A stretch of DNA of 64,000 bases from Candidatus Magasanikiibacteriota bacterium (GTDB lineage Bacteria; Patescibacteriota; Patescibacteriia; Magasanikbacterales; UBA922), in the NCBI GenBank assembly GCA_003510435.1, contig DOMK01000020.1, positions 59,523 to 123,522 of the forward strand. Direction: 5' to 3'. The position numbers and the translations under genes were made by a program. This document shows, piece after piece, positions 3,951-64,000 of this stretch. How positions within the stretch are numbered: position 1 is the stretch's first letter; each line of letters starts with the position of its first letter. Below the pieces are notes generated by a model. It made no database searches, was not told the origin of the DNA, and saw only the letters and a program-made list of their open reading frames with translations.

Positions 3951-6062
3951 ATGATTGATTTTCAAAAAGAATTAAATTCAGAACAACTCAAAGTAGTACA
4001 AGACGGCAACGGCCCATGTTTAGTTTTGGCTGGAGCAGGAAGCGGAAAAACTAGAACAATTACTTATCGCGTGGCTTATTTATTAGAACAGGGTATAAAG
4101 TCAGAAAATATTTTACTAGTAACATTTACTAATAAAGCGGCGAGAGAGATGTTGGAAAGAGTGGAAAAATTAACAAGCAACCCACCCTCTGATCCCTCCC
4201 TTATAAAGGGAGGGAGGACTGTGTTACCGTGGGCGGGAACGTTTCACCATATTGGTTATAGATTATTAAAAAAGTACGCCACTTTAATTGGCCTGCCTGC
4301 GCAGGCAGGCTATAAAAATAATTTTTCTGTATTAGACAGTGAAGATAGTTTGGATTTAATTAAACTTTGTCTGAAAAGCGAAGGGATTGATCGGAAAGAA
4401 AAAAGATTTCCTTCTCCAGCCGTAGTCCAGGCAATTATTTCTTATGCCCGAAATTCTGAGACTACGATTGCTGATGTTTTGGATTTGAAGTATGAACATT
4501 TTTTATATATCAGTGAAATAATTGTCAGGATTGCTGAAGATTATCAAAAAAGAAAATTGGCGGCCAATGTTATGGATTTTGATGATTTGCTCGTGAATTG
4601 GTATATGTTACTTATTAAGGAACAAGGAGTAAGGAATAAGTTAAGTGAACAATTTGAGTATATTTTAGTTGACGAATATCAAGACACAAATAAAATTCAA
4701 GCTTCAATAATTAATTTACTAGCTTCTAAGCATAATAATTTATTGGTCGTAGGTGATGATGCTCAGAGTATTTATTCTTTTCGGGCAGCTGATATTCAAA
4801 ATATTTTAGCGTTTGAAAAAAAATACAGTCAAGCAAAAATTTTTAAACTGGAAACCAATTATCGATCTACGCCAGATATTTTAAATTTGGCCAATGATAT
4901 TATTGCTAATAATTTAAAACAATATGAAAAGAATTTAAAAGCCATTAACACTAATTTTACCAAGCCAGAATTGATTGCCTTTGCTAGCCAAGCCGAAGAA
5001 GCTCAATTTATTGTTCAGAGAATCAAAGAATTGGAAAGTGAAGGAATAGACCTAAATAAAATTGCCGTGTTATTTCGCGCGGCTTATCATTCCCAGGCTT
5101 TGGAAATGGAATTGGTGAAGCGAGGGATTGATTATGATTATCGCGGGGGAGTAAGATTTTTTGATCGGGCCCATGTCAAAGATGTTCTAGCCTATTTGCG
5201 GATTATAAATAATATTGCCGACGAGATAGCTTGGCGTCGAGTGCTTAATATGCAGATTGGAATTGGGCCAGCGAATGCGGATAAAATAATTGAAGGGATA
5301 CGAAATACGAAAAATTACGAAATTACGAACTACGAAAATATTTTTGATGGGATTGGCGCGCAATTGCCAGCCAAAGCGCAGGTGGGGTGGAATGATTTTT
5401 TACAAATCTATTCCGCCGTCGCTAAAGCTATGGCGGATAAAGAAAATATAGGAGATTTGATTTTATCACTATTGGATTCAAAATATGTAGAATATATAGA
5501 AAATGAATATCCAGATTATCGTGAACGTTTGGAAGATATAAAACAATTAGCACAATTTGCGAAAAATGAAACAGAGCTGGATAAATTTTTGGCTGAAGCT
5601 ACACTACAAGATAGTTTTAGGAATCCCGCACTTCAAATCAACTCCACATTAGAAAGTAGAAGGGGGAAGTTAATTTTATCTACGATTCATCAAGCAAAAG
5701 GACTTGAATGGGAAGCAGTGTTTGTATTGGGTTTGTCGGCCGGACAATTTCCGAATGATAGAGCTTTGCGTGAGCGTGATGGTGTAGAAGAAGAAAGGCG
5801 TTTGTTTTATGTAGCAGTCACTCGCGCTAAAAAATATTTATATCTTACATATTCATTTGGTGGTGGGTGGGGAGATTCTTTGGCTGGACCAAGTATGTTT
5901 ATTGATGAACTTAATAAAAAATTAGTGTCAGCTGAAGGTATGGGTGGTGGAAGTGTATTTGAAGATTTAGATAACGAAGCAGAATATATTGATGAAGATT
6001 CTCAAATTATAGATAGTAAAAAGTTTCCTGGGAGTTTTTTGAAAGATTTGGGTGAACTGTAA
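3951..6062 (+). CDS. uvrD: ATP-dependent DNA helicase, UvrD/PcrA family
   Basis: It has the Walker A motif 'GAGSGKT' and 'VDEYQDTN' (motif II). The C-terminal 'TIHQAKGLEW...YVAVTRA' completes the helicase motifs. Confidence 0.92.
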   Translation: MIDFQKELNSEQLKVVQDGNGPCLVLAGAGSGKTRTITYRVAYLLEQGIKSENILLVTFTNKAAREMLERVEKLTSNPPSDPSLIKGGRTVLPWAGTFHHIGYRLLKKYATLIGLPAQAGYKNNFSVLDSEDSLDLIKLCLKSEGIDRKEKRFPSPAVVQAIISYARNSETTIADVLDLKYEHFLYISEIIVRIAEDYQKRKLAANVMDFDDLLVNWYMLLIKEQGVRNKLSEQFEYILVDEYQDTNKIQASIINLLASKHNNLLVVGDDAQSIYSFRAADIQNILAFEKKYSQAKIFKLETNYRSTPDILNLANDIIANNLKQYEKNLKAINTNFTKPELIAFASQAEEAQFIVQRIKELESEGIDLNKIAVLFRAAYHSQALEMELVKRGIDYDYRGGVRFFDRAHVKDVLAYLRIINNIADEIAWRRVLNMQIGIGPANADKIIEGIRNTKNYEITNYENIFDGIGAQLPAKAQVGWNDFLQIYSAVAKAMADKENIGDLILSLLDSKYVEYIENEYPDYRERLEDIKQLAQFAKNETELDKFLAEATLQDSFRNPALQINSTLESRRGKLILSTIHQAKGLEWEAVFVLGLSAGQFPNDRALRERDGVEEERRLFYVAVTRAKKYLYLTYSFGGGWGDSLAGPSMFIDELNKKLVSAEGMGGGSVFEDLDNEAEYIDEDSQIIDSKKFPGSFLKDLGEL

Positions 6063-6090
6063 ATTTTTGGCTTTCTTAAGCCAAAAATTC

Positions 6091-6119
6091 TTGACAAAAG
6101 TAATTTTTTGTGCTACTAT
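6091..6119 (+). promoter_or_regulatory. sigma70-type promoter: TTGACA, 17-bp spacer, TACTAT
   Basis: The -35 and -10 elements are near-consensus, 25 nt upstream of the ATG at 6145. Confidence 0.6.
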
Positions 6120-6144
6120 TCTCTATATTAATGACAAAATAAGT

Positions 6145-7926
6145 ATGGATGATTCCGAAATAGAACAATCACAATTAGTACAACCAGAGTCTGAGGAACT
6201 TTCTAACGGGACTAAGTCAGAAAGTCCTCTTTTAAGGTTAAAAAAAATTATTGCGAGTGAAAGTAAGCCTTTTGAGGCAATTAGTGTAGTAATTGACTTA
6301 ATGGAAACTACCAGTTTAGAATTGGCAGAAATGCCAGGGGCAGATCATGATGAATTTATCAAAATTGTTTTGCTTTATGCTCCCTATTTATATAGTTCGC
6401 TAGAAAATGAATATAATAATCTACCAGAGGAAATTAAAAAAACAGTTTTTAAAAGATTTGTGGAAAAGGTACCAGGCTCGGTGATGATTTATATGTGGGA
6501 AAAAATGCCTGAAGCAGAAAAAAAAGCTCTTGCTTTACATCTTTGGGAAAATCTTGTAGAAGAAGGTAATGATGATGAACATCTAATCAGAGAAGAATTT
6601 CCTGACTTATTTGTTGATTATCAACCAACAGAATTGGATTTAAATGAGTATAATAGGGATAGAGAAAAAATATTTAATTTTTCTGGAGATAAAATGCAGG
6701 AGGGCTATAGGTTTGTTGCTACCGATCAACAAAAATCAGAAGGGGAAGTAGGTTCGGCAGCTCGTAGTGGTTTAAAGAATTTTTTACATCAAGATTGGTG
6801 GAGCATCGAGGATTTTTCTTATGAAAGAATAAAAAGTAATTCGGAATTATTGAAAGACGATGATCCAGAAATGGCTGGAATTTATAAACATAGCATGCTT
6901 ACGTTGTCACATTTTTTGCATGAAAATGCTATACATGGAGAAGAAAGTCTAGAACAGCAATTTGCTAGATTTAGTCAGGAGATTAAACGACAGGATGAAT
7001 ATATGGGGAAGCATTTTCGAGTAAAGTTATCTGAGCCAGAAAAAAAGTTTTTAAAAGGATTTGATCCAGAAAATTTTAAATTTGCTTTACAGGCTATTGC
7101 CAACTTAGAAGAGCACGATGTCTTAGTTCCAGATATGGCCGATAAAATGCGAGCAATGGTGGCCTTTGCAGAAGAGTATTTTTTTTATAATCTCTCTCTT
7201 AAAGACAAAACTGATGAGGGTTCGCAAGTTCTTGCGGCTGCTCTTGGACCTGTGGTAGATTTAGTGGTAAAGGAAAAAAGTCAGGAACTTAACGCAAGTT
7301 ACAAAAAAAATATAACCACGGAATTAATACCAGATTTGGTAAAAAGATTCCCCAGTCTTAAGGGGTTACCTTTGGCCGAACGAATGGCCGGTGTAGAGGT
7401 TGGTTTTATTTCAACTTTGCGAAAAAATTTATCGGACTGGACTCATACATTGGGAGCTTATTCTCACTTAGGACGATCCATAAGTTTGCCGGTTTTTTCT
7501 GAACTTCCGGCATTTGTTTCTACTCATGAATCTATTCATGCTTTTTCTCATGGTCAATCCGATGACCTAGAAATGTTACCTAGGGACACGGAAAATACCA
7601 TGCTTAACAAAGTTTTGGTTGAAGGTATAACTCAGGCCATGACAGTGCGTTTAAATCCAGAATATGGTAAACAAGTAATGTATGCTGAGCATATGAGGGT
7701 ACTTCGTCGTTTGCGTGCTTGGGATGTGGATGAATCTTGGGGTATCCCTAAGCCGGCGAATATGCCAGAAGAAATTCCATTTGATTTTTTTGTGGATTTA
7801 ATGTGTGCCGATAAAAAAGATTTAAAAGAAGCTTTGCAAAGGGATTATAGGTTTTCAGATATTGAAGTGGAAAATTTTATTAAAGCCGGGCGTAAATTAG
7901 CAGAAACGATTAGCAGAAACGATTAA
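6145..7926 (+). CDS. hypothetical protein with an HExxH (HESIH) zinc-metalloprotease-like motif
   Basis: The start is chosen at 'MDDSEIEQ', downstream of the promoter. The 'VSTHESIHAFSHG' motif is the only recognisable feature; there is no other recognisable family. Confidence 0.5.
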   Translation: MDDSEIEQSQLVQPESEELSNGTKSESPLLRLKKIIASESKPFEAISVVIDLMETTSLELAEMPGADHDEFIKIVLLYAPYLYSSLENEYNNLPEEIKKTVFKRFVEKVPGSVMIYMWEKMPEAEKKALALHLWENLVEEGNDDEHLIREEFPDLFVDYQPTELDLNEYNRDREKIFNFSGDKMQEGYRFVATDQQKSEGEVGSAARSGLKNFLHQDWWSIEDFSYERIKSNSELLKDDDPEMAGIYKHSMLTLSHFLHENAIHGEESLEQQFARFSQEIKRQDEYMGKHFRVKLSEPEKKFLKGFDPENFKFALQAIANLEEHDVLVPDMADKMRAMVAFAEEYFFYNLSLKDKTDEGSQVLAAALGPVVDLVVKEKSQELNASYKKNITTELIPDLVKRFPSLKGLPLAERMAGVEVGFISTLRKNLSDWTHTLGAYSHLGRSISLPVFSELPAFVSTHESIHAFSHGQSDDLEMLPRDTENTMLNKVLVEGITQAMTVRLNPEYGKQVMYAEHMRVLRRLRAWDVDESWGIPKPANMPEEIPFDFFVDLMCADKKDLKEALQRDYRFSDIEVENFIKAGRKLAETISRND

Positions 7927-8338
7927 GTGAAGAGAAAATAATTTTTTAAATAAAAACAGCCTTTGTTAGGTTGTTTTTAAAATATAATTTTATTTATAGG
8001 GCGCAGAGATGGAGTGCTGCGCGTTATCACGACGCCGTGCAGGCCGGTAGCACAGCCTTAGCTGAGCTAGTCGGTTTGCATTGCAACACTCCATCGGACG
8101 CTTTCACGTCCTTGCCCTCCTTTGCGCGTCTAGTGCAGCTAAAAAGTATTGAAAGACGAGTGGGGGCGGTCAGACCCTCCTCATCTTTGTAACTTTTTAT
8201 TTGCATGCGCAATTTTTCATTTTCCCCCGTTCAGAAAAACTTGAGTCGGTGTTGCGTGAACTGGGTACTTGACTGCAAGTTTTTCGTTGGTTAACGAATG
8301 TTTGAGATATACCATTGTTTATGAATTTTGTCAATAGT

Positions 8339-8367
8339 CTTGACTTTATAATAATTTTATACTATAA
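8339..8367 (+). promoter_or_regulatory. promoter of ndk: TTGACT, 17-bp spacer, TATAAT
   Basis: The hexamers are consensus and lie 30 nt upstream of the ndk ATG. Confidence 0.6.
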
Positions 8368-8397
8368 TGTAGCCAATAAATTTTAACGTATATTTAT

Positions 8398-8877
8398 ATG
8401 AATTTTGAAGGAATTTTTGAAAAAACAATTTTGATTGTCAAGCCAGATGGCGTGCAAAGAAGCTTGGTTGGTGAAGTATTGCGTCGCTTAGAACTTAAGG
8501 GTCTTAAGATCGTTGGTTTGAAAATGATGCAATTAGACGAATTAAAACTTCGTGAACACTATGCCCATCATGTAGAAAAACCATTTTATTCTGGTTTGGA
8601 AAATTTTATGAAGTCTAGCCCGGTGGTGTGTATTTGTGCCGAAGGTAAAGGGGCAGTCGAAGCTGTGCGTTTGATCGCTGGTACTACCAATGCGGCCAAA
8701 GCTGACGGTGGTACTATTCGTGGTGACCTTGCTATGGGTATGTGCAATGTAGTACATTGTAGTGATAGCGTAGAGACTGCCAAAGCAGAAGTGGATAGAT
8801 TTTTTAAAGAAGGAGAAATTTTTGATTATGATAAGACTGAATATCTACATGTATATATGGATGATGAAAGAGTGTAA
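8398..8877 (+). CDS. ndk: nucleoside diphosphate kinase
   Basis: It reads 'ILIVKPDGVQRSLVGEV...' and has the active-site region 'NVVHCSDS'. Confidence 0.93.
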   Translation: MNFEGIFEKTILIVKPDGVQRSLVGEVLRRLELKGLKIVGLKMMQLDELKLREHYAHHVEKPFYSGLENFMKSSPVVCICAEGKGAVEAVRLIAGTTNAAKADGGTIRGDLAMGMCNVVHCSDSVETAKAEVDRFFKEGEIFDYDKTEYLHVYMDDERV

Positions 8878-8933: not shown

Positions 8934-9153
8934 TATAAGAAGTTATCCACATCTCGTCTTGCTTATTTTTTAGCGTTTTAGTAAGATAAAACAGATAGAA
9001 ACAATATGAATTTACAAAATAACAATCAAAATATATATAAGAACTGGAGTATCAAGTTGTCTGTTGTCGTACGCAATCTTTTTGTGTACGTTTTGTATTC
9101 TAGGGTGCTATATATAAATGGTTGTTATAATGATTAAAAAGATATTTATATAA

Positions 9154-9190: not shown

Positions 9191-9361
9191 GAAACACGGA
9201 TTATACGGATTGAAAAGGATTGTACGGAGGGTAAGTAAAATTGTTCTTTATATAAGGAGTAAATAGGGTAGCGAAAATAGAATGTTTTGGGGCTAGAATT
9301 TTTTCTAAGTAATTGGAAAATATTTTGGCCCCAGAACGACTGGGGTTTTGTAGGAGGCGGC

Positions 9362-9484
9362 CATGTCGGCTGTCGTTAATGGAGAACTCAGGGCGCACGT
9401 GGACATGCTCGCGGCACAGAACGAGGGACTGCGGTTTCTCATGAGCCAGTTTCACTGGCTGACCGCGTTCGAGCTCTGGCTCGC
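9362..9484 (+). CDS. GC-rich 40-aa ORF with a strong Shine-Dalgarno site (candidate foreign small gene)
   Basis: AGGAGG lies 6 nt upstream of the ATG. It encodes 'MSAVVNGELRAHVDMLAAQNEGLRFLMSQFHWLTAFELWLADR', and the codon third positions are GC-rich, unlike the host. Confidence 0.3.
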
Positions 9485-9611
9485 CGACCGGTGAGTCAGA
9501 AGCAGCGCGAGCTGCACGTGCGGGAGGGCTTCGCTACCCAACCCACGTATTATTTATTTTATAAAAAGTAAATAGTACGTGTGTGGGATGTTATCTTTGG
9601 AGGGAAAATGA

Positions 9612-9800
9612 ATGGGTAAACAGGAATGGGTGTGCCCGAGCTGTGGTTGCGATGTCAAGAAGAAGAATACTCGGGTTTGTCCCGAGTGTGGAGCTGGTCG
9701 GTACGACAGAAAGCGCATACCTCAGATAGGTGTGTCGCAGGCGATCACGAGCTTTTTCGAGATTGCCTATCCTCCTGAAGCTAGGAGGAAGAAGTCGTGA
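9612..9800 (+). CDS. small zinc-ribbon protein (CPSCG...CPECG) in a GC-rich segment
   Basis: A GGAGGG Shine-Dalgarno site is present. Two CxxC pairs are present and codon usage is GC-rich. Confidence 0.4.
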   Translation: MGKQEWVCPSCGCDVKKKNTRVCPECGAGRYDRKRIPQIGVSQAITSFFEIAYPPEARRKKS

Positions 9801-9931
9801 CGACAGCCAAGGGACGGCGGGAATACAGACTTGTGGTCTTTCCCGCCGTCCCAGATGAAAACAAAACCGCCAAGAACTTGAGAGAAAAAAATATTGTTCT
9901 TTCAAGGAGGTAATGGCGGTTTTGTTTTAAA

Positions 9932-9960
9932 TTTGACAAACGTTTTTTATAATCGTATAA
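9932..9960 (+). promoter_or_regulatory. strong orphan promoter TTGACA, 17 bp, TATAAT
   Basis: Both hexamers are perfect consensus. No CDS follows; the tRNA-Val promoter lies about 190 nt downstream. Confidence 0.6.
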
Positions 9961-9966
9961 TATATT

Positions 9967-10145
9967 TGATCCTGATAGCTGTGGCAGTTCATATCATATC
10001 CGCAAATATTCATACTTGGGAGATCTATATTTCTCCAGCCTGTGGGCTAGAGGTGCGATCACCCACCTGATTTTCAGGGGTATGGATATGTCCTGCCTCG
10101 GGCTGATGGATCCAAAAAGACAATCTTAAACAGGTTGTTTTTTTA
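9967..10145 (+). ncRNA. candidate small RNA (about 180 nt) between the orphan promoter and a T-run
   Basis: A consensus promoter lies upstream. The segment is mixed-GC with several short hairpins (gtggg...cccac, cctga ttt tcagg) and ends in gttgttttttt. Confidence 0.3.
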
Positions 10146-10265: not shown

Positions 10266-10306
10266 CTAGGGCTTCGCTACGCTACGCCCTATAAATAATT
10301 TACTAC

Positions 10307-10351: not shown

Positions 10352-10428
10352 GGGCAATTAGCTCAGTTGGCTAGAGCGCAACACTGATAATGTTGAGGTC
10401 CCAGGTTCGATTCCTGGATTGCCCACCA
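10352..10428 (+). tRNA. tRNA-Ile (anticodon GAT), CCA encoded
   Basis: It has acceptor GGGCAAT/ATTGCCC, anticodon loop CTGATAA and T-loop TTCGATT, and ends ACCA. Confidence 0.85.
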
Positions 10429-10539
10429 AACACAGTTGGACAAGACTGTGTTTTAATTTACAAAAAAGATGCTTAGTAATGAGATTCTCGGAGCGAAGCG
10501 AAGATCCCGATTTATATCGGGGCTGGATTGCCCACCAAG

Positions 10540-48103: not shown

Positions 48104-48418
48104 AATAAAAATAATTAACAGCAGAAATAGCTAATATTAGCTATTTTTTTATTTTTAAACATGTTTAACTATTGACCCCACAGAATGTCATGCCTGGTTC
48201 GCTTCGCTTCACCATGGCTGACATCAGCGGGGCGAGATCAGGTTTTGCATTTTTTTGTCTATTATCATTATTTTGAGTTTTGCCATTATCTGGGGATAAT
48301 AACATTGACAAAGTCCTCGAAATATGGTATTTTTGTATGTTCAAAAAAGTTGGTTGGCAACTAGGTGTTCGTATAAAATGAATACCAAGGTGCCTATCAA
48401 CCCAAAGAAGGAGGTCCC

Positions 48419-48616
48419 ATGAAGGGATTCCTGCTGCGGTTTCTAGCCCTTCTGGCGATGATGTTCGTCGTCAGCGCCTGCGAGTCGGAGACGGGTTACA
48501 CCGTCTGCGAACAGCAGTGCGAGTCCAAGGGCGTGTCGTCCGAGGACTGGGACGAATGCATCGGAGGATGCGAGGCTGAGGCTGAGGTCGAAGCCAAGCG
48601 TTTTTCGGACATGTAG
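48419..48616 (+). CDS. GC-rich small Cys-rich lipoprotein-like peptide (65 aa)
   Basis: A perfect GAAGGAGG Shine-Dalgarno site is present. The signal peptide ends in lipobox 'VVSAC', followed by six further Cys. The GC-rich codon usage is foreign to the host. Confidence 0.45.
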   Translation: MKGFLLRFLALLAMMFVVSACESETGYTVCEQQCESKGVSSEDWDECIGGCEAEAEVEAKRFSDM

Positions 48617-48775
48617 TCCCAGATACGGCACGACAGGCCACATTCCCGTCGACTATTAAGAGAGGTCGACAGCGCTGGGAGCAAACATCTCTTTTCTGAA
48701 GGAGGGCTGGAGTCAATAAGCGCAATTGATTCCGTCCGATTATTATTTCTATTTTAATAGAAGTTATTGAGGAAT

Positions 48776-63287: not shown

Positions 63288-64000
63288 CTCTGTCATATTT
63301 GATATATGATTAAGATGGGTAAAGTGTGCCCAATTTGGCTAAAACTAGCGGATAAGTGTGAATAAGAACAATAAAAGTGCTAACTTTTGCGATCTGTATA
63401 TATAAATATATAACAAGTCTTTCTCAGAGATTGTCATGATATGGAAAAATGATGATTTGTGAAAGAAGATTTGTGGCTAGATCATTACAATTCAAAAACA
63501 TAAAAATAAAAGTATAAATATTATTCTTTCCTTTTGCTGTGCAAAAGCGAGTCTTTGGCTCGGTAGGTATTGTTTTTACTCATCCCCCTAACCCCTTCTC
63601 TACAAAGTAGAGAAGGGGAGAATAGATTAAAACGTTTCCCCCTCTCTTACTGAAAGAGAGGGGGAACAAGGGGGTGAGTTAAGAAACAAAACCCGCCGAG
63701 CCATACCTGTGGCTCGCGAGACAATGTTTCCCTTTCTCGATGACTAGTGGTCGTTGAGCGAGGGTAGAGATATGGTACCGGTTTTCTGTATCGTTTCTCA
63801 GCAACCCGTCTTCGGGCGGGTGAAAGGTTGGTGAGCCGTGAAGACGGCTCGGAAGTTGGCCACGAGCTTGTTCGTGGTATTGCTGGGTCTCGCTCACGAG
63901 ACGAATGCTTTCGGGCAGGAGTCCTTCGTGAGTGCCCCGCGCGGAGGGATGCCGTCTGAGGCGGATCTTCGCGGGGGGGCCATTGAAGCCCTCGAGGCTT

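Follow-up and report, generated by a model that had tools for sequence, protein, structure and literature searches.

The window, by which we mean the whole 64,000-nt stretch of DNA that was analyzed, contains in order uvrD (3951–6062), a 624-aa ORF (6052–7926), a GC-rich element, ndk (8398–8877), small ORFs, a 6S-like RNA, tRNA-Val, tRNA-Ile, lepB, and hisS. The Ndk protein is 97% identical to that of a Candidatus Magasanikiibacteriota MAG, and about 50 further loci from Magasanikbacteria and other Patescibacteria were retrieved. The GC content reaches 0.60 at 8000–8099, compared with 0.20–0.34 in the flanks and 0.356 over the entire window, which agrees with the contrast of about 60% against about 30% reported in a first-pass annotation of this DNA. 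That annotation proposed a candidate structured non-coding RNA at 7985–8195, upstream of the ndk promoter. The position is correct, as the promoter lies at 8340–8368. The limits are slightly narrow, because the structured core spans 7998–8118, a downstream hairpin occupies 8123–8211, and a U-tract extends to approximately 8225. The core is 59–60% GC in a 36% GC genome. The features of the region are listed below, where L001 denotes the locus of a sister lineage that also carries the element.

7952 to 7978, + strand: T1, terminator hairpin of the upstream gene (AAAAACAGCC-loop-GGUUGUUUUU), −13.2 kcal/mol, z −3.6
7983 to 7988, + strand: TATAAT, a −10-like hexamer and possible promoter, 9 nt before the first paired base, no −35 box
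7998 to 8118, + strand: conserved structured core, five predicted helices and two three-way junctions
7998 to 8003 with 8113 to 8118, + strand: helix P1, closing a three-way junction with P2 and P5
8008 to 8016 with 8087 to 8095, + strand: helix P2, extended via 8018–8020/8083–8085 to the second junction
8021 to 8035 and 8037 to 8081, + strand: P3 and the long hairpin P4, both at the second junction
8096 to 8111, + strand: P5, a local hairpin
8116 to 8123, + strand: linker CCUCCUUU, anti-Shine-Dalgarno-like, between core and hairpin, its first three bases inside P1
8123 to 8211, + strand: T2, an 89-nt imperfect hairpin, probable intrinsic-terminator stem, −36.4 kcal/mol, z −5.0
8212 to 8225, + strand: U-rich tract AUUUUUCAUUUUCC, immediately 3′ of T2
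8234 to 8285, + strand: T3, a third hairpin with an A-run and a U-run on its sides, folding in both the window and L001
8303 to 8339, then 8340 to 8368, + strand: AT-rich conserved block followed by the ndk promoter, 89–90% identical to L001; context, outside the RNA

The 231-nt segment folds with an energy of −101.5 kcal/mol (z −7.1), and none of 200 dinucleotide shuffles folds as well. The isolated core has a minimum free energy of −63.8 kcal/mol and a z score of −5.9 to −6.1, which is below every one of 164 control windows (mean z −0.91, sd 1.39, minimum −5.27). These controls are 125 nt long with a GC content of at least 0.55, and come from the other GC-rich inserts that relatives carry at this genomic site. 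The RNAalifold consensus of the core contains 45 pairs, all of which are retained in L001. Two of the complementarities noticed in the first-pass annotation are elements of this fold. The gatggagtg/cactccatc pairing, whose first strand had been placed near 7995, corresponds to P2, and the local hairpin ggacg-ctttca-cgtcc is P5. The third, gcgca with tgcgc, is present as complementary sequence (8001–8005/8018–8022 and 8123–8127/8207–8211), but does not belong to the fold common to the sister genome; the 8123–8127/8207–8211 pair closes the downstream hairpin in the window only.

Few relatives carry the element. A search of 57 CPR ndk loci with nhmmer and a covariance model of the core (R1) recovers it only in L001. 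When the same tools were run on 12 further close-relative contigs, 115 viral loci, and 12 metagenome loci, all matches were again window-type or L001-type copies. Exact-protein look-ups identify eight contigs of the window's own population, in which the core is identical throughout, and four L001-type contigs, which also have identical cores and differ by one SNP in the T2 loop. A single sister lineage, L001, carries the element among about 70 related Magasanikbacteria ndk loci. The site is empty in L136 and L137, where the uvrD stop codon is followed by approximately 20 nt and the ndk promoter; these loci fall into the same 90% ndk cluster as the window, with ndk DNA identities to it of 86% and 82.5%, respectively. 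The element is also absent from the next four ndk clusters (89–91% amino acid identity), from L142–L147, and from about 55 other CPR loci. It is single-copy, with one occurrence in the 64-kb window and no extra copies in any locus searched. Exact-pattern scans of genome and metagenome collections returned chance matches only.

Where the element is present, its conservation is selective. The two carriers share 85% identity in the UvrD protein and 89% in ndk DNA, with 27% of third positions and 41% of four-fold ndk sites differing. Between the window and L001, identity is 0.87 in T1, 0.53 in the AT spacer (7981–7997), 0.93 in the core, 0.36 in T2, 0.53 in the U-tract, 0.47 in the following spacer, and 0.89 in both the AT block and the ndk coding sequence. 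The 6S-like RNA and the tRNAs give values of 0.95 and 0.99–1.00. The core differs by six substitutions, all confined to 8057–8075 in distal P4, and the remaining 106 nt contain none, loops and junctions included. Measured against the consensus fold, five of the substitutions are unpaired and one converts G-U to G-C, so that no pair is broken; against the window's own minimum free energy fold, two touch weak pairs. Random placement avoids pairs to this degree in approximately 0.4% of trials (P about 0.004), a statistic that we down-weight since the consensus was derived from the same two sequences. There are also three indels (2 nt after 8022, 1 nt in the P4 loop, and 1 nt after 8095), which fall in a bulge, a loop, and a junction. 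Compensatory double changes occur at none of the 45 pairs, though two distinct sequences provide almost no power. The P2 and P5 pairings of the first-pass annotation hold in L001 insofar as no substitution disrupts a consensus pair. The covariation that it proposed as a check is not seen, because there are only two lineages and the core is too conserved. Support for the helices consequently comes from thermodynamics and from the placement of changes.

T2 exhibits a different pattern. Its counterpart in L001 is only 36% identical, yet still forms a hairpin of approximately 90 nt (−43.7 kcal/mol, z −5.8), and a recognizable U-tract, UUUUCCAUUUUCC, lies directly 3′ of it. Loss of sequence with retention of the hairpin and U-rich tail is the expected evolution of a terminator stem. 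The arrangement conforms to that of intrinsic (Rho-independent) terminators, in which a hairpin precedes AUUUUUCAUUUU in the window and UUUUCCAUUUU in L001, and a terminator scan flags the inner stem at 8162–8179; the 89-nt length is atypical for this class.

These comparisons bear on whether the element has any function at all. It could be GC-rich foreign DNA that folds by chance and has been conserved through recent exchange between two lineages, and the restriction to two carriers and the lack of covariation are in keeping with this idea. A single recent transfer is excluded, however, by the mosaic of identities over 450 nt, which runs 0.87, 0.53, 0.93, 0.36, 0.53, 0.47, and 0.89. Moreover, the core z score lies outside all 164 GC-matched controls, and the diverged T2 retains its hairpin and U-tract. 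We regard a functionless segment as quite improbable.

The boundaries of the element suggest how it arrived. T1 marks the 5′ boundary and is 87% identical in L001, where it is found directly 3′ of uvrD. At the other end, T3 separates the element from the ndk promoter. In L145, a locus without the element, the uvrD terminator aligns with the L001 T3 stem (ACAACAACCG/CGGUUGUUGU) and its conserved loop (GCGUGAAC), and T3 is probably the ancestral uvrD terminator. Because the L145 terminator aligns to T3 and not to T1, the stretch comprising T1, spacer, core, T2, and U-tract (approximately 280 nt) looks like one cassette. Such a cassette would have been acquired once, by the ancestor that two sister Magasanikbacteria species share, and placed between uvrD and the terminator that this gene originally had.

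The 624-aa ORF overlaps the uvrD stop by 11 nt and has no Pfam match, and contigs of the population differ in how it is called (593 aa; 47+541 aa). L001 lacks it, uvrD there leading directly into T1, and it is therefore a lineage-specific gene insertion adjoining the element on its upstream side. Its gain would postdate that of the cassette and is confined to the lineage of the window.

Across Magasanikbacteria, the spacer between uvrD and ndk is a hypervariable hotspot. L005, L009, L033, L136, and L137 have nothing inserted there. In the spacers of L002, L004, L007, L012, L018, L019, L020, L025, L026, L032, L037, L039, L043, L049, and L142, approximately 100–1400 nt upstream of ndk, unrelated inserts of 60–75% GC occur in genomes of 35–46% GC. 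Many of them contain small ORFs on the minus strand that are equipped with a promoter and a strong Shine-Dalgarno (SD) sequence of their own, and several of these ORFs are Zn-ribbon-like (CxxC...CxxC).

This setting raises the possibility that the element is left over from, or carried along with, selfish or horizontally acquired DNA, for example a non-autonomous mobile element or its RNA/DNA recognition module, whose structure serves the element rather than the host. In favor of this reading are the spacer that is either empty or filled with unrelated GC-rich inserts, the foreign-like composition (60% vs 36% GC), the presence/absence pattern among close relatives, and the other GC-rich cassettes of the window (9272–9591, absent from L001, and 48419–48616). 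The element is also bracketed by two similar A-run/U-run hairpins, T1 and T3. It nevertheless does not look like an interspersed repeat or a MITE-like element, being single-copy in the 64 kb and across the loci searched, with neither terminal inverted repeats nor a clear target duplication. No match was obtained by blastn against phage and plasmid collections, viral and metagenome searches gave nothing beyond chance matches, and no transposase, integrase, or reverse transcriptase adjoins the element. Strong purifying selection since the split (core 93% identical vs 36–53% in the flanks) is unexpected for a decaying remnant. Overall, we consider a selfish origin of the structure unlikely.

Two repeats in this part of the window should be mentioned. 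A perfect 13-nt inverted repeat (TATTTATAGGGCG/CGCCCTATAAATA, 7991–8003 and 10285–10297) joins the 5′ edge of the element to the tRNA-Val flank. We considered it as the ends of a mobile or invertible segment and rejected it, as it is absent from L001 and is probably a chance occurrence. Separately, the 3′ end of tRNA-Ile, GGATTGCCCACCA at 10416–10428, recurs approximately 110 nt downstream at 10525–10537, much as an integrated element would leave an att-site scar. L001 is 96% identical in the sequence separating the two copies and beyond them.

No protein-coding explanation fits the element. The first-pass annotation dismissed the ORFs that cover it as artefacts, and this is borne out by their lack of conservation. 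The same annotation named a fragment of foreign coding sequence as the outcome that would count against an RNA. We reject a protein-coding gene or gene fragment, as indels of 2, 1, and 1 nt within 121 nt destroy the reading frames between the two carriers and no protein homologs were found. Stop-free translations have no Pfam match, and a word-index search of 5.8 billion proteins with the 61-aa minus-strand frame returned nothing. The 73-aa plus-strand frame gave one match in an exhaustive phmmer search of 1.84 billion representatives, an Ig/cadherin-repeat protein; this is an artefact, consisting of a weak 35-residue alignment (pairwise E 0.006) summed over ten repeats. A decayed copy of the neighboring Zn-ribbon-type small ORFs was likewise rejected for lack of similarity.

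Comparisons with known RNA families were also negative. Rfam 15 at gathering thresholds, applied to the 64 kb, yields no match overlapping 7985–8235. With the threshold relaxed to E ≤ 10, no match to the element is found within 2.5 kb, and the 251-nt element by itself gives only a chance 8.6-bit match to uc_338. The L001 copy has no Rfam match either. These results concur with the first-pass annotation, which had seen no RNase P, SRP, or tmRNA core by eye. In the literature we found neither this RNA nor a motif associated with ndk nor structured RNAs specific to CPR, and no description of a CPR non-coding RNA beyond the universal ones. The element belongs to no known RNA family and is a credible orphan ncRNA candidate. 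Its fold, its selective conservation, and its non-coding nature together uphold the original proposal of a structured RNA.

The strand of the putative transcript is not decided by thermodynamics, as energies are nearly equal on both strands (z −7.4 for the reverse strand of the 231-nt segment). The + strand is favored because of four other features. The U-tract after T2 is conserved on the + strand, and the minus strand has none there. The T2 hairpins of the window and L001 are 3–5 kcal/mol more stable on the + strand. The core contains six G-U pairs on this strand that would be A-C mismatches on the other, and T1 has a conserved G-U pair that likewise becomes an A-C mismatch on the minus strand.

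The promoter evidence is less clear. No conserved canonical promoter precedes the core: the TATAAT hexamer lacks a −35 box, is not among the promoter-scan results, and aligns with TATAGA in L001, within a spacer of 53% identity. By comparison, agreement with the sigma-70 consensus reaches 10–12 of 12 positions in the promoters of ndk, 6S, and the tRNAs. On the minus strand, a conserved TTGACA-17-TATATC (8334 to 8306) has a perfect −35 box, and a transcript from it is possible. The element might then be a minus-strand unit, either a structured RNA or a leader with the 5′ part of a small SD-led ORF. The AT block that includes this −35 box is 89% conserved, the minus strand folds nearly as well as the plus strand, AAAGGAGGG is followed after 8 nt by GTG on the minus strand (8124 to 8105), and inserts in L004, L012, L018, and L025 have exactly such an orientation. 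The ORF so defined nonetheless encodes 26 aa in the window but, owing to a 1-nt indel, 13 in L001, and from residue 5 onward the two peptides are unrelated. At the protein level it does not resemble the inserts of other genomes, for which tblastn produced noise only. The −10 box lacks the invariant final T, and read in this direction T2 has no U-tract, T1 acquires an A-C mismatch, and the conserved U-tract after T2 is left unexplained. A minus-strand unit is accordingly given a low probability. The same ORF argues against a type I toxin-antitoxin locus, which we rejected; it is the only SD-led ORF of the element, it is not hydrophobic, and its L001 version consists of 13 unrelated residues.

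If the + strand is transcribed, the element could instead be a cis-acting leader, a riboswitch or attenuator in which the core is the sensor and T2 the expression platform controlling read-through into ndk. It lies upstream of ndk on the same strand, and its layout resembles that of transcription-terminating riboswitches, with a junction-rich domain closed by P1 and, within 4 nt, a terminator hairpin and U-tract. The tail of the core, CCUCC(UU), could pair with a GGGGG run as a weak antiterminator, and this run is among the few conserved bases in the 5′ arm of the hairpin. Riboswitches differ in several respects, however. T3 and the near-consensus promoter of ndk itself (TTGACT-17-TATAAT, an 11/12 match in the promoter scan, conserved in all relatives) intervene between the element and ndk, unlike the arrangement in a regulatory 5′-UTR, and relatives run ndk from the same promoter without it. 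The antiterminator pairing shared by the two carriers amounts to 5–7 bp (CCUCC(UU):GGGGG(AA)), set against a hairpin of −36 to −44 kcal/mol, and is not convincing. An 8-bp pairing, GCGCAGAG:CUUUGCGC, was tried as the switch and rejected, as it exists in the window only and is absent from L001. In addition, riboswitches are normally widespread and the element is found in two species, no riboswitch model matches it, and a leader would require the same missing upstream promoter. A role in controlling ndk therefore seems improbable.

The candidate is best compared with orphan ncRNAs found by the GC-IGR/DIMPL approach, in which such candidates are recognized as long GC-rich intergenic regions of AT-rich bacterial genomes (PMC6429828, PMC8723152, PMC11109978). 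Like those candidates, the element is a strongly folding, GC-rich intergenic island in an AT-rich genome, non-coding, with its own terminator and no assigned function. Unlike the published motifs, which have many representatives and covariation, it is represented by two lineages and shows no covariation. PMC11109978 describes no motif associated with ndk or with CPR.

A second useful comparison is 6S RNA (RF00013). The element is of a similar size class, stands alone between protein genes, and is conserved to a similar extent (0.93 vs 0.95 for 6S). In both cases, conservation reaches unpaired bases, as expected for an RNA recognized as a folded shape. The architectures differ, since 6S RNA is a single long interrupted helix with a central bubble and is nearly universal, whereas the element is branched, with five helices, and restricted to two species. 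It also gives no score against the 6S model and lacks a clear promoter, unlike the 6S copy in this window. The latter is a candidate at 9966–10116, 1.8 kb downstream, that scores 38.9 bits against Rfam 6S (gathering score 46.4; E 8.8e-6), lies directly behind a perfect TTGACA-17-TATAAT promoter (9933–9961), and is 95% identical in L001. It is probably a 6S RNA of a divergent CPR type that falls below the Rfam threshold.

Of the readings considered, we favor, at somewhat better than even chances, a lineage-specific, stand-alone gene for a structured small RNA of approximately 225 nt, encoded on the + strand and equipped with its own terminator. Several results weigh against this reading: no canonical promoter is conserved, no helix is backed by covariation, the two strands fold almost equally well, and the element occurs in only two lineages, with no homolog elsewhere in our searches. 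We infer that transcription would start at approximately 7995–7998, just 3′ of the upstream gene's terminator, and that the RNA would fold into the 121-nt core with its five helices and two nested three-way junctions, and would end near 8220 with its own long terminator hairpin and U-tract. Apart from the tip of one peripheral hairpin, all bases are invariant, those of loops and junctions as well, which suggests that such an RNA may act as a folded object bound by a protein or a small ligand, rather than through a short antisense seed.

A bolder version of the stand-alone gene concerns the linker CCUCCUUU, which is identical in L001. The element could be a self-contained, horizontally acquired RNA-gene cassette (a 5′ insulating terminator, the RNA, and its own terminator) that represents a new functional RNA class in CPR, for example one whose CCUCCUUU tail mimics the anti-SD end of 16S rRNA. 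In its specific form, this proposal has the tail, a hairpin followed by CCUCCUUU, targeting strongly SD-led, GC-rich foreign small genes such as those at 9363, 9612, and 48419. We treat it as speculative and assign it very little probability. Were it true, an anti-SD-like RNA could tell foreign from host messages, as host genes lack SD sequences. Of the 34 window ORFs that are 120 aa or longer, none has an SD-like motif at −20 to −4, and translation in the host appears not to start from SD sequences. In agreement with this, the 16S anti-SD motif is reported to be missing from about half of Parcubacteria (PMC9297842). The simple form of the idea, an anti-SD seed acting on host mRNAs, was rejected, given that 0 of 34 host ORFs have an SD and that P1 takes up half of the motif.

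Strong SD sequences do stand in front of the GC-rich small ORFs at 9363, 9612, and 48419, with AGGAGG, GGAGGG, and AAGGAGG, respectively (9349–9365, 9598–9614, and 48405–48421). The first belongs to an island of 57–62% GC (9272–9591) with a 43-aa SD-led ORF (9363–9494) that has no Pfam match. This island is absent from L001, which has approximately 65 nt instead, and is a window-lineage-specific insertion. The second, 9612–9800, is a GC-rich 62-aa Zn-ribbon-like ORF (CPSCG...CPECG) with sub-threshold Pfam zinc-ribbon matches only. It is kept as a protein in L001 (84% nucleotide identity, frame intact), and small ORFs in the L004 and L018 hotspot inserts begin in a similar way ('MGxx...CPxCG'). 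Two strong GC hairpins follow it at 9801–9932 (gggacggcggga.../...tcccgccgtccc and aaaacaaaaccgcca.../...tggcggttttgtttt); they are 83% identical in L001, the interval 9700–9824 has a z score of −4.9, and a weak ohsC-like Rfam match lies on the minus strand of 9801–9932 (E 0.21). The third ORF, 48419–48616, is located in a 58% GC island (48397–48710) and encodes a Cys-rich 65-aa product with a signal-peptide and lipobox-like N-terminus (…VVSAC); the island is another foreign-looking small-gene cassette. Two further regions stand out. The segment 9006–9137 is 97% identical between the window and L001, above the value for ndk. It contains a 43-aa AT-rich ORF and a terminator-like hairpin (9068–9090), gives a weak, chance-level CyaR match (E 3.2), and could be a small protein or another sRNA. 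Finally, a 58% GC island at 63637–64000 runs off the end of the window, is preceded by two GC hairpins (63583–63670), and has no Rfam match at gathering thresholds.

The genomes of CPR/Patescibacteria are tiny. If the stand-alone RNA gene is real, a strongly constrained, branched 121-nt core, confined to two species and gained as a cassette at a hypervariable site, would show that these bacteria gain and keep new structured RNAs, and the core would present a compact, well-defined target for biochemistry. A host whose genes lack SD sequences but whose genome has GC-rich, SD-led small genes at hotspots also prompts one to ask how these bacteria deal with foreign DNA, and this surrounding pattern may matter as much as the candidate RNA itself.
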